A stretch of DNA of 8,412 nt from a virus (Duplodnaviria > Heunggongvirae > Uroviricota > Caudoviricetes), in the IMG/VR virus record IMGVR_UViG_2690316148_000008. One strand, 5' to 3'. A program made the translations under genes and the position numbers. The notes under the pieces were generated by a model. That model was not told the DNA's origin and did not search any database. It saw only the letters and a list, made by a program, of their open reading frames with translations. Below, one piece after another: positions 3,624 through 8,412 of the stretch (position 1 is its first letter; each line of letters begins with the position of its first letter).

Positions 3624-4257
3624 TTTCCCCAGGAACGCAGAAAACCCCANAATTTCTTAACTGTTTTTTCCCATGACGCGCGTGTTATCTGGTTTGTCAC
3701 CTCGCATATAGCATTAAATGCCTCCGTTGATGGTAGTCTTTCATAGCCACGACCACCACAACGCTGGCAGTCTCTGATAACAGGCATACCACGTTTTACC
3801 GACTCTTCACGATGAATGGCGACACCACGCCCACGGCAATCCTTACAGGCGGTGGAAACCTCACCCTTTCCGCCACACTCCGGACAGGCAACTTTTACCA
3901 CCTCCCTGACTTTTTTCCATTCTTCCCAGTAAGACGGATACACACCTTTCGTACACTTTGCCCATACCGGCGGCTTACCATCCGGATACTGGATCTTGTT
4001 TGTAAAAACCTCGCTTTCAATAAATTTTTTTCCGTGACAGCAGGGGCACTGTTTTTTGCTCGCCGCGCTACGGGCATAATCTTCAAACGCATACGAAGCC
4101 ATAATACGCATCACTGCCGGTTTTATTTCTGCCGGGAGTTTTCTTAACGCCGCCACGCGATCACACCGACTGAGTGCATATTCTGTCAGCAATTCTGTTG
4201 CCCGCTCTCTGTCATTCATACTAATGCCCATTTTCCCAAGGAACGCAGAAACCCCCA
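3043..4257. repeat. Two diverged direct copies of a ~607-bp Q segment (3043-3649 and 3651-4257) joined at a single N (3650)
   Basis: Manual alignment: the two units are near-identical over roughly the first 300 bp (about 1 difference seen) and clearly more divergent over the rest, with substitutions and 1-nt indels. Confidence 0.85.
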
Positions 4258-4396
4258 TCTCAGCCCGATTCTGTGTCATGCCCTGCGCGGCCATCACATC
4301 AGTGATACTCAGCGCATCTTTCGACGTTGAGGCCGATGCATCAGTCAGGCCGGGGGATTTTGGGGAGTAGTATTTCGGTAAATCTTCCAGTTTCAT
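3608..4396 (-). CDS. Q: Antitermination protein Q, lambda-Q family, copy 2: carries the true N-terminus; homology-supported coding is 3651-4396, and the ORF tail 3608-3649 is a frameshifted read-through across the N at 3650
   Basis: 262-aa ORF; N-terminus MKLEDLPKYYSPKSP...DVMAAQGM resembles lambda Q; same Cys motifs as copy 1; start codon overlaps the rusA stop (ATGA). Confidence 0.75.
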   Translation of the reverse strand: MKLEDLPKYYSPKSPGLTDASASTSKDALSITDVMAAQGMTQNRAEMGVSAFLGKMGISMNDRERATELLTEYALSRCDRVAALRKLPAEIKPAVMRIMASYAFEDYARSAASKKQCPCCHGKKFIESEVFTNKIQYPDGKPPVWAKCTKGVYPSYWEEWKKVREVVKVACPECGGKGEVSTACKDCRGRGVAIHREESVKRGMPVIRDCQRCGGRGYERLPSTEAFNAICEVTNQITRASWEKTVKKXWGFLRSWGKWASV

Positions 4397-4767
4397 TTTT
4401 TGACCTGCTCTTCATGCATTATGGGGTAAATCTTCACCCCCAGACGTCCACCAGATACTGGCTGACCACGAACGATATTGATTTCATCAAACTGCTCATC
4501 GTCCATTAACACTCCCGCATGTGTCAGTGCATCCAGTGGTGCTTTCAGGATATTGTCCAGGTCACGACGGCGCTTATCCGGTGGCTCTGCAATAATCTTT
4601 ATCGCCAGTCTTCCGGACAGGCTTAATTTCAGTCGCTGCTGACGGACAATAAGCGCCACATCCCGGCGATAACGCTCACCGGCTTTTGATACAAAATATG
4701 TGTTGTCACGACGTCGCCAGTAAGTATTCACCGTCGGCGGATAAGGTAAAATAAACTCATGGCGCAT
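4393..4767 (-). CDS. rusA: Crossover junction endodeoxyribonuclease RusA (Holliday junction resolvase)
   Basis: 124-aa ORF with RusA-like pattern LPYPPTVNTYWRRR...RRRDLDN...SGGR; stop overlaps the Q start (ATGA); start overlaps the stop of the upstream 85-aa ORF. Confidence 0.85.
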   Translation of the reverse strand: MRHEFILPYPPTVNTYWRRRDNTYFVSKAGERYRRDVALIVRQQRLKLSLSGRLAIKIIAEPPDKRRRDLDNILKAPLDALTHAGVLMDDEQFDEINIVRGQPVSGGRLGVKIYPIMHEEQVKK

Positions 4768-5024
4768 CAGCGCAGCACCTCCTGCACCAGTTTTTCAAAC
4801 TTTCCGACTCTGGTTTCCAGCTCTGCCACACAGTCCACCAGCTCATCTACTGCTTTCTGTGCGCGATGCTTCGCCTGCATCAGTTCCCGAAGCGCGGGTA
4901 CCATATCTTTACGGATAGCGTCTTTTGTTATGCCCGTTTTTTCGAGTTGTTCAGCATGACGCAGCATTTCCTGCGCGTGTTTACGCAATTGTTCAGGGGT
5001 AAAAGTCATTGTCTGGTTGTTCAA
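4767..5024 (-). CDS. Hypothetical small phage protein (85 aa from a TTG start with GGAG SD 8 nt upstream; in-frame ATG at 5009 would give 80 aa); N-terminus resembles the 114-aa ORF at 7639-7983
   Basis: Open frame; MTFTPEQLRKHAQEM is similar to [16 protein letters not shown] in ORF 7639-7983; 1-nt stop/start overlap with rusA. Confidence 0.55.
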   Translation of the reverse strand: MNNQTMTFTPEQLRKHAQEMLRHAEQLEKTGITKDAIRKDMVPALRELMQAKHRAQKAVDELVDCVAELETRVGKFEKLVQEVLR

Positions 5025-5076
5025 AAGAAACGCTCCATCTTACTGCTGTCAGTTCGTTTATTACTGTATCTGCGCG

Positions 5077-5143
5077 NNNNNNNNNNNNNNNNNNNNNNNN
5101 NNNNNNNNNNNNNNNNNNNNNNNNNNNNNNNNNNNNNNNNNNN
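5077..5143. other. Assembly gap (67 N)
   Basis: Run of n characters; separates the 5' UTR of the 85-aa ORF from a truncated second rusA copy. Confidence 0.95.
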
Positions 5144-5306: not shown

Positions 5307-6365
5307 TTATGCTTTCCACTTCAGAACACCCGAATTTCTCGCGTGCATTAAAAAACGAATCAGCAACAACAGCTGACTGCCGTGTTTCTCTTCAAAATCT
5401 TTTACTCCGGCATGTAGTTCGTTACGGCATTTACGGCATAACGGAATAACAAACAAATCATCAGCCTTTGTTCCCATCCCTCCCAGTCCATGACCAATGA
5501 TGTGATGCGGATCATCTGCCTGATTGCCACACGTCATGCATTTCTGCGTTTTTACCCAGCGCGTGTATACAGGCATCTCTTCCCGTTGTGATTTCTGGCG
5601 CTGGAGATACTGAGCCGGTGACTCCGGATCAACGGCAATGCTGACCACCGTCTTTTCCTGTGGTGGGTTCTGTTGCTGGTGGACGTGAGGCAGTAACGCA
5701 ATATTTTTTGTGCGCTGCTTCAGTATGCTGGTGGCTGTCTGCTCTCCCGGTATGATGTCGCTTTCACTGTACACAGAGCGAATTTTTTCCGCACGCAACC
5801 CCAGCGAACGACGTAATACCGCTTCCGGTAGCGCGTCCGCCACCTGATTGCGGACCGCCCACCAGGATAATTCAGCCAGAGATAATTCACGCTCCTGCGT
5901 ACCGCTTATTGCGTGACCGATGACGTCAATCATCCATGCTGACAGGTTTTGATGAGCAAGTTGCTCGAGTGATTCGGATGTCTGGTCACGCAGCTGGTTG
6001 TCGCAGTGCCAGCACAACACCATTGCGCCGGTACCATAACGGTGAATGACGGTTTCGCTGTGATGATAATCGCCGTGTGGCCACTGGCAGGATTTAATAT
6101 GGCGCAACAGCCAGTCAGACAATGCACCAGCACCACCAGCAGCACGAATCACCCGTGCGTTACTGAAAAACGGCAGCAATGTTTTGTCTTCCACCAGCGG
6201 CTGGCGAGCGGCAGGAACGACCCCGGACGGCAGATTACGCATGCTTTTTGGTTCCGGCTCCACCAGTATTCTGCCGTTATGGAATGCTGACATTGATTCA
6301 CGGCCTGGCTTAACGATAACCAGACCGAGTTCCGGTACCAGAACAGGTCGAAGTAATACCCGCAC
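5307..6365 (-). CDS. DUF968-family prophage protein (YdfU-like) with a C-terminal HNH/zinc-finger-like motif
   Basis: 352-aa ORF; C-terminal CMTCGN...HHIIGHGLGG...CRKCRNELH (CxxC...HH...CxxC...H); sits immediately upstream of rusA, the position I recall for ydfU-like genes in lambdoid prophages. Confidence 0.7.
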   Translation of the reverse strand: MRVLLRPVLVPELGLVIVKPGRESMSAFHNGRILVEPEPKSMRNLPSGVVPAARQPLVEDKTLLPFFSNARVIRAAGGAGALSDWLLRHIKSCQWPHGDYHHSETVIHRYGTGAMVLCWHCDNQLRDQTSESLEQLAHQNLSAWMIDVIGHAISGTQERELSLAELSWWAVRNQVADALPEAVLRRSLGLRAEKIRSVYSESDIIPGEQTATSILKQRTKNIALLPHVHQQQNPPQEKTVVSIAVDPESPAQYLQRQKSQREEMPVYTRWVKTQKCMTCGNQADDPHHIIGHGLGGMGTKADDLFVIPLCRKCRNELHAGVKDFEEKHGSQLLLLIRFLMHARNSGVLKWKA

Positions 6366-7081: not shown

Positions 7082-7100
7082 ATTCACCGGAAATAAACAA

Positions 7101-7122
7101 CAAAAAACCCGCCGAAGCGGGT
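7101..7122 (-). terminator. Rho-independent terminator of the hok transcript (stem cccgc/gcggg, loop, then UUUUUUGUUGUUUAUUU on the minus strand)
   Basis: Hairpin 7108-7121 and A-run 7102-7107 on plus; about 70-90 nt after the hok stop, matching the usual hok 3' UTR length. Confidence 0.65.
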
Positions 7123-7191
7123 TAAGTGTGGGTGCATTGAGGATGCCTGACCCATCAGAGGTGGCGAGGGATTTCTCCCCCGCCTGGTCTC

Positions 7192-7347
7192 TTACTCCTC
7201 AGGTTCGTAAGCTGTGAAGACAGCGACCTCCGTCTGGCCGGTTCGAATTCGTACCTCGCAGAGGTCTTTCCTCGTTACCAGTGCCGTCACTATGACGGTT
7301 AAACAGATGACGATCAGGGCGATTAACATCGCCTTTTGCTGCTTCAT
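7192..7347 (-). CDS. hokD: Hok/Gef-family membrane toxin (51 aa), HokD/RelF-like; the open frame extends in-frame upstream to an ATG at 7404 (70 aa), which may be a mok-like initiation region
   Basis: MKQQKAMLIALIVICLTVIVTALVTRKDLCEVRIRTGQTEVAVFTAYEPEE matches my recollection of E. coli HokD and the Hok consensus (CLT...TRK.LCE.R); AAGGAG SD 9 nt upstream of the ATG at 7347. Confidence 0.85.
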   Translation of the reverse strand: MKQQKAMLIALIVICLTVIVTALVTRKDLCEVRIRTGQTEVAVFTAYEPEE

Positions 7348-7516
7348 AGCCTGCTTCTCCTTGCCTTTCGGCACGTAAGAGGCTAACCTAGATTTGCCGT
7401 TCATAGATTGAGCCTCAGATTAATGTTAAGCGTCTTGCCGGACGCGTAATGTTAACTGGGGCTTTTCTCTATCTGCCTTTTGGTGTTCATGCCTGAGACA
7501 GATAGCCTCAAGCACC

Positions 7517-7551
7517 CGCTGCAATTCTACTTAACTCTCCTTTTCCCGCAA
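7517..7551 (-). promoter_or_regulatory. Candidate hok promoter (-35 TTGCGG at 7546-7551, 16-nt spacer, -10 TAGAAT at 7524-7529), predicted start near 7517 giving a ~170-nt leader
   Basis: Hexamers read on the minus strand; predicted 5' end coincides with a 12-nt element (7506-7517) complementary to the 3' UTR (7130-7142). Confidence 0.5.
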
Positions 7552-7638
7552 ACCGTTTTTATCCCCAGCGGCAAATCGAATACACCACCAGCGCCACCGC
7601 CATCGCAATTCCTACCGTTGTTAATGCTTCAGGCCAGG

Positions 7639-7983
7639 TCATCGTAAAATATCCTCCACGCTTATCAGTCCGTTCCGCTCCAGATAACTCATCGCCTTAT
7701 CCGGTAATTTGCAGTCTGGCTTCGCTTTCCTCAGTTGCCAGGTTAACTGCTTTACCAGCATGGTTAACTCATCGACCAGACGCTGATATCCCACTGGTTT
7801 GTATTCATGCAATTTACCGGCTGGCTCTGCTGCCAGCGATACCAGTGCGATTTCCAGAACAGCAATATCCATCTTATATGTGCGGATGATGTCATGGTCG
7901 ATTGTGCCCGGTATGCACAGTCTCTGTGCTTCAATAGTCTCCTCTGCGTGAGCTATTAACTGCTCTCTGGTAAAAGTCGTCAT
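7639..7983 (-). CDS. Hypothetical small phage protein (114 aa), translationally coupled to the upstream 55-aa ORF
   Basis: Start ATG overlaps the upstream stop (ATGA); N-terminus resembles the 85-aa ORF at 4767-5024 and its middle ([12 protein letters not shown]) resembles the 55-aa ORF ([11 protein letters not shown]). Confidence 0.55.
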
Positions 7984-8147
7984 GCCGTAGCCCCTTCTTG
8001 ATATTTTTCAAACCAGAACACAACCGGCTCTGCTTCCAGCGATGCCAGCGCAATCCGTGCCAGTTCCATTTGTTCACCACGGGTAAGCCCGTTTTCAAGC
8101 GGGTTTTTAATGAACAATTCAATACGTTCTTTGGTAATAGTGGTCAT
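7980..8147 (-). CDS. Hypothetical small protein (55 aa), absent from the supplied ORF track because it is below the length cutoff
   Basis: Manual translation: [55 protein letters not shown]; strong GGAG Shine-Dalgarno 6 nt upstream; stop overlaps the start of the 114-aa ORF. Confidence 0.5.
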
Positions 8148-8157
8148 GTGTTACTCC

Positions 8158-8412
8158 TTAACCCGCAGTGCTTTCAACTGATGAGGGGAACAAAATCTTT
8201 TCATCAAACCCTGCATTCATATCATGAACAGCAACACACCAATCCATCGACNNNNNNNNNNNNNNNNNNNTCGACGAACGATTATCAAGAGCCTCCATGA
8301 TTTCATCCATGCGGCGTAGGTCATACAGGTAAATGCTTTTATCGCCAATGGTGTAAAAGCCAATTTTTTTCGGTGATGGATGAGGTGTACTGGCAATAGC
8401 GGACACTACCAT
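8158..8412 (-). CDS. Hypothetical protein (84 codons), start ATG at the window edge (may extend beyond); interrupted by a 19-N gap at 8252-8270
   Basis: Open frame MVVSAIASTPHPSPKKIGFYTIGDKSIYLYDLRRMDEIMEALDNRSS...; stop TAA at 8158-8160 overlaps the SD of the next ORF; the first 31 nt are repeated inverted at the left window edge. Confidence 0.4.
   Translation of the reverse strand: MVVSAIASTPHPSPKKIGFYTIGDKSIYLYDLRRMDEIMEALDNRSSXXXXXXXSMDWCVAVHDMNAGFDEKILFPSSVESTAG
8382..8412. repeat. Right arm of 31-bp terminal inverted repeat (partner 1-31)
   Basis: Exact reverse complement of bases 1-31. Confidence 0.9.

Follow-up and report, generated by a model that had tools for sequence, protein, structure and literature searches.

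The 8,412-nucleotide (nt) stretch of Caudoviricetes DNA recorded as IMGVR_UViG_2690316148_000008 in IMG/VR, hereafter the window, contains two small overlapping open reading frames (ORFs) of 55 and 114 amino acids (aa) upstream of the toxin gene hok. Judged from their sequences, these ORFs are two adjacent members of the EaA/YfdT-type mosaic family, which is already known, heavily mosaic and functionally uncharacterised. We consider it probable that they belong to the accessory early proteins of lambdoid/P22-like phages, that the 55-aa ORF is a stump of an N-terminal module (N-module) made by recombination, and that the pair is not a toxin-antitoxin or defence system. The first-pass annotation had described the pair as overlapping by ATGA and the overlap is indeed present, because both ORFs exist on the minus strand and the plus strand reads tcat at 7980-7983, corresponding to ATGA on the coding strand, a 4-nt overlap in which the TGA stop codon of the 55-aa ORF is contained.

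Both ORFs carry the N-module of EaA/YfdT-type proteins, a segment of approximately 40-55 aa that starts with M-x-x-(I/F/L)-T-(K/R)-E, ends with (I/V)AL(A/V)SL(E/A)AEP and occurs in several types among the homologues, type A in the 55-aa ORF and type B in the 114-aa ORF. The 55-aa protein aligned with residues 1-54 of the 114-aa protein, namely the whole N-module (BLASTP expectation value (E) 1e-5), and the Smith-Waterman score of 56 for the two proteins was reached by 0 of 2000 shuffles, which scored 23 +/- 4. The 55-aa protein had previously been likened to the middle of the 114-aa protein on the basis of a short motif; the similarity proved significant, but it extends beyond that motif and covers the N-terminal residues 1-54. 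The N-module, which opens with T-K/R-E-Q, is predicted to be a capped helical hairpin, and its conserved T-x-x-E start and E-A-E-P end look like helix capping signals. A C-terminal module (C-module) of 45 aa, found in a subset of the members, is present in the 114-aa protein and absent from the 55-aa ORF. Residues 66-114 of the 114-aa protein align to positions 145-193 of PHROG 660, and these columns are nearly invariant in our alignment A2. The middle part varies among the homologues, in which it is absent or consists of DUF551, DUF550/pyrophosphohydrolase, an Ead_Ea22 coiled coil or domains without a model. The 114-aa protein, composed of the N-module, a short linker of 15 residues and the C-module, is thus a minimal complete member.

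The modular build recurs in the homologues: in P0090, named 'Eaa protein', module A is followed by a middle part and the C-module, in P0066 DUF551 is fused to the N-module of the 114-aa protein, and gp45 of N15 contains the C-module. The 55-aa ORF matched PHROGs 3323 (E 1e-19), 60 (E 4e-18) and 660 (E 4e-10), and the 114-aa ORF matched PHROGs 660 (E 8e-43) and 5117 (E 3e-9), all of unknown function, and neither protein matched a model of Pfam (E<=1), NCBIfam (E<=0.1) or PADLOC (E<=1). A profile search of 1.84 billion representatives retrieved 1287 relatives at E<=1e-3. When 136 of the 1287 were scanned against Pfam, 125 had no Pfam domain, and the remainder contained DUF551 (5), Ead_Ea22 (4), dATP/dGTP pyrophosphohydrolase (1) or DUF5490 (1). 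Scans of seven relatives, including YfdT of Escherichia coli K-12, against Pfam and NCBIfam gave no credible family and one sub-threshold FUSC-like match (P0111); a SAP/HeH-like reading of the C-module was dropped because no Pfam model supports it, and it is not claimed here. Members of the family lie in the ea or nin-side arrays of the early operons of lambdoid/P22-like phages and prophages, as observed in the window, in three loci (L001, L002 and L003) and in further loci. ORFs of 55-63 aa that consist of the N-module only are common in databases, and some of them are truncation products, for instance of an IS21 insertion in E. coli B7A or of contig ends ('partial' entries). The PHROG matches, the modular homologues and the 1287 relatives together bear out the earlier suggestion that the two ORFs are part of a modular family of small prophage proteins.

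Several named proteins share modules with the pair. EaA of Salmonella phage P22 and HkaE of coliphage HK620, the latter annotated with DUF551, have the N-module of the 55-aa ORF, with approximately 90% and 87% identity, respectively, over their first 42-45 residues as measured on the relative P0090. They are encoded by non-essential early-operon genes ('ea', early-left) of unknown function in a highly mosaic region; general statements on such mosaicism have been published (PMC2629481), and our literature search on EaA found nothing specific on its function. Whereas the 55-aa ORF ends 14 residues past the module, the module is followed in EaA and HkaE by larger middle and C-terminal domains. 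Their genes lie between exo and int, but the pair in the window is found on the nin side, in an array upstream of hok. YfdT (b2363, 101 aa) of the K-12 prophage CPS-53 shares the N-module with the 114-aa protein (E 8e-6). It is, like the members of the pair, a small prophage protein without a Pfam model, but has a different C-terminal half lacking the C-module. YfdT is 83% identical (E 3e-23) to the N-module of another relative, P0048, the rest of which matches the C-terminal part of the 114-aa protein. YfdT (locus L085, 7874-8179) was described in 2016 as a protein without a defined motif and carries the family N-module. It is the only family member with an experimental hint: multicopy yfdQ-yfdR together with yfdS or yfdT inhibits initiation at oriC, with yfdS and yfdT reportedly being interchangeable (PMC4776307). 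This replication phenotype is not transferable to the pair, since YfdQ, YfdR and YfdS are absent from the window. Genes of the ea22 type are likewise mosaic and early-expressed with portable domains, and their proteins are oligomeric (PMC10834534). Ea22 of lambda and of Shiga toxin (Stx) phages (PF13935) resembles the family in its short N-terminal segment, helical oligomerising part and swappable C-terminal domains, which include DUF551; PF13935 co-occurs with family modules in 4 of the 136 representatives, and Ead_Ea22 genes stand in the same arrays. However, the pair proteins do not have the long coiled coil of Ea22, the pro-lysogenic phenotype is that of Ea22, and no match to PF13935 at E<=1 was found for the 55-aa and 114-aa proteins or for the product of an 85-aa ORF located elsewhere in the window.

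To examine the partners of the 114-aa gene, we surveyed 80 IMG/VR loci with a 99-100% identical copy. The ORF overlapping its start was the 55-aa ORF in approximately 57 loci, a 61-aa ORF with another N-module in 3 and an HNH endonuclease in approximately 19, and all of these upstream ORFs end in the same 15 residues and with the same 4-nt overlap. That the tail and ATGA stay the same although the upstream ORFs differ indicates that both travel together with the 114-aa gene, as a single cassette. In Stx phage ArgO145, the early-left region contains this cassette with 98.5-99.6% identity (98.5% for the segment matching 7558-8038); it stands there behind an HNH gene, the product of which matched nuclease models only in the same scans as above, and adjoins an unrelated annotated toxin-antitoxin pair on the opposite strand. 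From the comparison of these loci, the ATGA overlap is a property of the cassette and not of the pair, and the 55-aa ORF is an EaA-type gene that was joined to the cassette right after the EAEP hinge, at codon 41/42 (8024/8025). The gene following the 114-aa gene was hok in approximately 50 of the 80 loci and another gene in approximately 25. More diverged relatives of the 114-aa protein (102-120 aa) occupy the same slot upstream of hok, with a gene for a DUF7167, zinc-ribbon or 139-aa N-module protein upstream and a gap of 1-96 nt to that gene instead of an overlap. The tail itself (7983-8024; compare 4423-4788 in L003), which also ends the HNH endonuclease of Stx phages, looks like a gene-boundary module carrying the ribosome-binding site of the next gene.

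The two ORFs are further connected by a direct repeat of 29 nt (D2) encoding the hinge, which is in frame and has copies 86% identical at a spacing of 203 nt. A natural protein of 101 aa (P0031) corresponds to module A joined at ASL/AAEP to the rest of the 114-aa protein. In genomes of Shigella sonnei and E. coli (loci L102-L105), its gene is located between the same 87-aa gene that precedes the pair in the window and hok, and once in an early-left array beside an integrase gene. The gene comprises 306 nt and the pair 509 nt, so that exactly 203 nt are missing; because the spacing of the repeats equals this length, deletion between the hinge repeats accounts for the hybrid. Larger fusions of 167-168 aa (P0001, P0002 and P0024) were considered as a possible ancestral single gene and rejected because they are rare, with 1-3 members each in Logan/ENA assemblies only. 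P0002 and P0024 contain out-of-frame stretches, and these rare fusions are frameshift variants or sequencing errors.

The AlphaFold2 model of the 114-aa protein is all-helical, with helices at residues 6-26, 30-51, 64-87, 95-103 and 109-113 and a mean predicted local distance difference test (pLDDT) score of 74.6. The first two helices form a hairpin, with decile-mean pLDDT values of 78-91 over residues 1-50, which is followed by a flexible linker and the long helix 64-87. A sequence search of the PDB with the 114-aa protein alone gave nothing below E 0.4, and the best PDB matches of the A2 profile were designed helical proteins (E 0.039-0.085). We also modelled the natural fusion P0001 as a proxy for a complex of the 55-aa and 114-aa proteins. 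The model showed no confident joint fold (pLDDT 54.7) and is uninformative, because MAFFT placed the homologues of the 55-aa protein on the second module and left the first without alignment depth.

Taken together, we propose that the pair sits in an accessory array between the replication genes and the hok/nin genes, within the early-right operon driven by pR. Upon induction, both ORFs would be translated from the early-right transcript, and ribosomes finishing the 55-aa ORF would re-initiate at the ATGA. Expression is probable on induction or infection and not in the repressed prophage, since a crude consensus scan of 7100-8412 found no sigma-70-like promoter site on the minus (coding) strand. 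The hairpin of the N-module could serve as an oligomerisation or adaptor handle, as suggested by its attachment to many unrelated domains, the small residues on one of its faces (IALASL) and the obligate oligomers formed by Ea22-type array proteins. For the invariant C-module, contact with a conserved partner from host or phage is probable, and this contact would influence the physiology of the host or the development of the phage without being essential, as reported for YfdT-containing gene sets and Ea22.

Several observations weigh against this proposal. The role given to each module is one that we infer, the AlphaFold2 model has a low predicted template modelling score (pTM 0.40) with modest confidence for the C-module, and a Foldseek search with it returned only generic helical hairpins (best E 0.7 in PDB and 0.09 in BFVD). 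A strong Shine-Dalgarno sequence precedes the 55-aa ORF, which is undamaged in every one of the approximately 57 loci that contain it and shows no excess of nonsynonymous change, so it could be a functional small protein instead of a stump. The loci surveyed differ very little from one another (99-100% identity, nearly clonal), and hence the conservation of the pair says little either way. On the supporting side, the ratios of nonsynonymous to synonymous polymorphism (pN/pS) in the most diverged alleles, approximately 0.2 for the 55-aa ORF (one diverged allele) and 0.35 for the 114-aa ORF, give only weak support for coding, because they are based on very few substitutions among these loci.

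Other functions of the 55-aa ORF were considered. It might be a translated leader whose peptide has no role and whose terminating ribosomes open or load the start of the 114-aa gene at the ATGA, which would explain the conservation of the last 14 codons and the junction whatever gene lies upstream. Three observations would speak for it: the upstream ORFs, of three unrelated kinds, have an identical tail and ATGA, the 114-aa ORF has its Shine-Dalgarno-like sequence inside this tail, and a small G+C-rich hairpin is predicted at 8040-8023, just upstream of the tail. We regard this as unlikely, because the gaps of 1-96 nt in the diverged relatives indicate that coupling is not a requirement of the family, and the conserved junction may simply reflect the recent common origin of the 480-nt cassette. 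Alternatively, the 55-aa product might have a function of its own as a microprotein: the free hairpin would bind N-modules, either that of the 114-aa protein or those of paralogues encoded by co-resident prophages, and thereby tune or block their assembly in a dominant-negative or regulatory manner. The product indeed consists of the shared module only, its ORF has AAGGAG as a strong Shine-Dalgarno sequence, it would be co-translated with an N-module protein, further tandem N-module genes are known from other loci (L097 and L098), N-module-only ORFs are common, and the pN/pS ratio of the one diverged allele is also in favour. Nevertheless, such ORFs arise by obvious accidents such as the IS21 insertion and contig ends, the 55-aa ORF owes its tail to the cassette, the 114-aa gene manages without this ORF in approximately a quarter of the loci, and the modelled fusion, its first module uncovered by the alignment, gave no confident joint fold, which makes a functional microprotein distinctly unlikely in our view. 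Quite improbable is a broader scheme in which the hairpin is a shared handle for mixed oligomers across co-resident lambdoid prophages, free handles, the 55-aa product among them, inhibit or regulate these assemblies as microproteins, and recombination at the conserved hinge maintains the diversity; this would add a combinatorial level of control or interference between prophages.

The first-pass annotation had suggested a toxin-antitoxin or a small defence/anti-defence module. In a type II system of this kind, one product would be toxic or effector-like, the other would neutralise it, and both would be co-translated through the ATGA. In favour of this idea are the tight 4-nt overlap and the position of two small proteins in the slot beside hokD that relBE holds in the Qin prophage of K-12, and the annotated toxin-antitoxin pair adjoining the cassette in ArgO145 points to a hot spot for such cargo. 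The positional analogy is borne out by the gene order of Qin, in which relB-relE lies directly upstream of hokD-rem-ydfU-ydfT. Like the pair, relBE is a two-gene unit with a start/stop overlap. In contrast to relBE, however, the pair has an interchangeable partner and two products that are paralogous to each other through their N-modules, unlike toxin and antitoxin partners, and it shows no sequence similarity to relBE and no signal for a RelE or RelB fold. DNA-level homology to Qin does not extend beyond position 7361 of the window. A type II toxin-antitoxin system is expected to form a conserved unit, which the pair does not, since an HNH gene or a 61-aa variant replaces the 55-aa ORF in approximately 22 of the 80 loci and the genes upstream of diverged relatives are unrelated. 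Furthermore, the overlap belongs to the cassette, both proteins are acidic (isoelectric points 4.8 and 5.9), the scan, too crude to be decisive, gave no promoter-like site on the coding strand, and the natural hybrid, in which half of each gene is missing, is maintained at this locus in several genomes. No toxin or antitoxin homology of either product was found in the Pfam, NCBIfam, PADLOC, PDB and Foldseek searches, and the number of PADLOC-DB families of known anti-phage defence matching either protein at E<=1 was zero. Finally, the toxin gene hok has its own antitoxin. The Hok ORF with the overlapping mok frame matched Pfam HOK_GEF (E 3e-23) and PHROG 251 'MokW-like' (E 8e-33), and the antisense RNA sok was detected by Rfam at 7342-7517 with 112 bits (gathering score 59), indicating that the neighbouring toxin already owns an RNA antitoxin. 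By the tests available, the pair falls into no toxin-antitoxin or defence family, and we consider a toxin-antitoxin or defence function very improbable. It is conceivable that C-module proteins, which recur immediately upstream of hok, influence the expression of hok/sok.

The surroundings of hok showed some further regularities. In Qin-like prophages, the stretch from the replication genes to hok is filled with 'ea-type' genes (Ead_Ea22, DUF4406, DUF4014, DUF7167 and N-module proteins), which lie in the early-left operon in lambda and P22, and cassettes shared by both locations were observed. Repeatedly, a C-module gene directly precedes hok (loci L087-L101 and L104). The surroundings of hok and the 114-aa cassette are also a hot spot for addiction- or defence-type cargo, including a Fic-domain gene in one E. 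coli locus (L091, 3883-4368), the annotated toxin-antitoxin pair of ArgO145 (L003, 3366-3877) and relBE of K-12.

The 85-aa ORF upstream of rusA had been proposed as a third paralogue, so that the family would be present three times in 8 kb. The alignment of its product with the 114-aa protein is limited to approximately 24-33 N-terminal residues (BLASTP E 6e-4; shuffle p approximately 0.001; hhalign probability 6.7%), and the hinge motif of the N-module does not lie within it. No alignment with the 55-aa protein was found, and the ORF belongs to PHROGs 2565/2539, as opposed to 660/3323/60 for the pair. In the searched collections, the gene is almost invariably 85 aa long, on thousands of contigs, and in the complete genomes holding this segment it lies between a DnaB-type helicase gene and rusA. 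The short and weak N-terminal match, the missing similarity to the 55-aa protein and the different PHROGs do not support a third paralogue, and the count of three may be an assembly artefact. The window contains runs of N, which are scaffold joins, at 3650 (a single N), 5077-5143 (67 N) and 8252-8270 (19 N). Across the 67-N run, the initial 54 codons of a rusA are connected with sequence that shows 89% identity to the helicase-85aa-rusA segment found in a different prophage type; as the run lies between the 85-aa gene and the pair, the two may not be physically linked. The gene Q occurs twice in tandem around the single N, as alleles 94.7% identical, and the middle of the window (3651-5076) may derive from a different prophage. 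The run at 8252-8270 is demonstrably such a join: the reference is continuous (CCATCGACGAACG), whereas the window reads CCATCGAC-N19-TCGACGAACG with a duplicated 5-nt overlap, TCGAC.

The coordinates of the features are collected in Table 1. In the right half of the window, the minus strand encodes every gene, and their succession is that of a Qin/DLP12-like lambdoid prophage, namely the 87-aa gene, which is interrupted by an N run and by the end of the window, the 55-aa ORF, the 114-aa ORF, hok/mok/sok, an 87-aa ORF, a Rem-neighbour-like 92-aa ORF, DUF968/HNHc_6, rusA and Q. This order was derived from the ORF list, the Pfam, PHROG and NCBIfam scans and the annotation of near-identical loci. 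RefSeq already holds both proteins of the pair as hypothetical (WP_000207997.1 and WP_000206826.1), and the locus was found in 241 of 5426 complete E. coli genomes at a coverage of at least 80%. Elsewhere in the window, the DUF968 (YdfU-like) protein (5307-6365, minus strand) also matches the HNHc_6 putative nuclease model with its C-terminal part (E 2e-6). Rfam detected the small RNA STnc100 (133 bits) and three transfer RNA (tRNA) genes at 780-969 and 1049-1295 on the minus strand, downstream of a DNA methyltransferase gene (1336-2394); this is the tRNA cluster that such prophages usually have ahead of their lysis genes.

Table 1. Positions of the ORF pair, its sequence elements and neighbouring features in the window
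Feature	Position	Strand	Description
55-aa ORF	7980-8147	minus	codons 1-41 (8147-8025), EaA-type N-module; codons 42-55 (8024-7983), 14-residue tail
114-aa ORF	7639-7983	minus	N-module type B, residues 1-54 (7983-7822); linker; C-module, residues ~70-114 (7776-7642)
Shine-Dalgarno AAGGAG of 55-aa ORF	8154-8159	minus	overlaps TAA stop of upstream 87-aa gene; read from sequence
Shine-Dalgarno-like GAAGGGG of 114-aa ORF	7991-7997	minus	7 nt ahead of ATG, within tail of 55-aa ORF
Hinge direct repeat, copy 1	8026-8054		within 55-aa ORF, encodes hinge
Hinge direct repeat, copy 2	7823-7851		within 114-aa ORF, encodes hinge
Mobile cassette	7558-8038	minus	tail of upstream ORF, ATGA junction, 114-aa gene and the following 81 nt
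hok/mok/sok type I toxin-antitoxin locus	7192-7517	minus	just downstream of 114-aa ORF; self-contained, outside the pair
85-aa ORF	4767-5024	minus	separate, highly conserved prophage gene between DnaB-type helicase gene and rusA

As it stands, this analysis removes a false lead: the overlapping small genes beside hok are very probably not a new toxin-antitoxin or defence module. They are ordinary mosaic phage genes, and their residual value is descriptive. Two modules that are very common in enterobacterial prophages, with 1287 representatives including YfdT and EaA, still have neither a Pfam or NCBIfam model nor an assigned function. The locus plainly illustrates how such genes are rebuilt, by an in-frame hinge repeat of 29 nt and by a cassette carrying its own start/stop junction. 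If the handle does mediate mixed assemblies of prophage proteins, the family would be of wider interest for the interactions between prophages.

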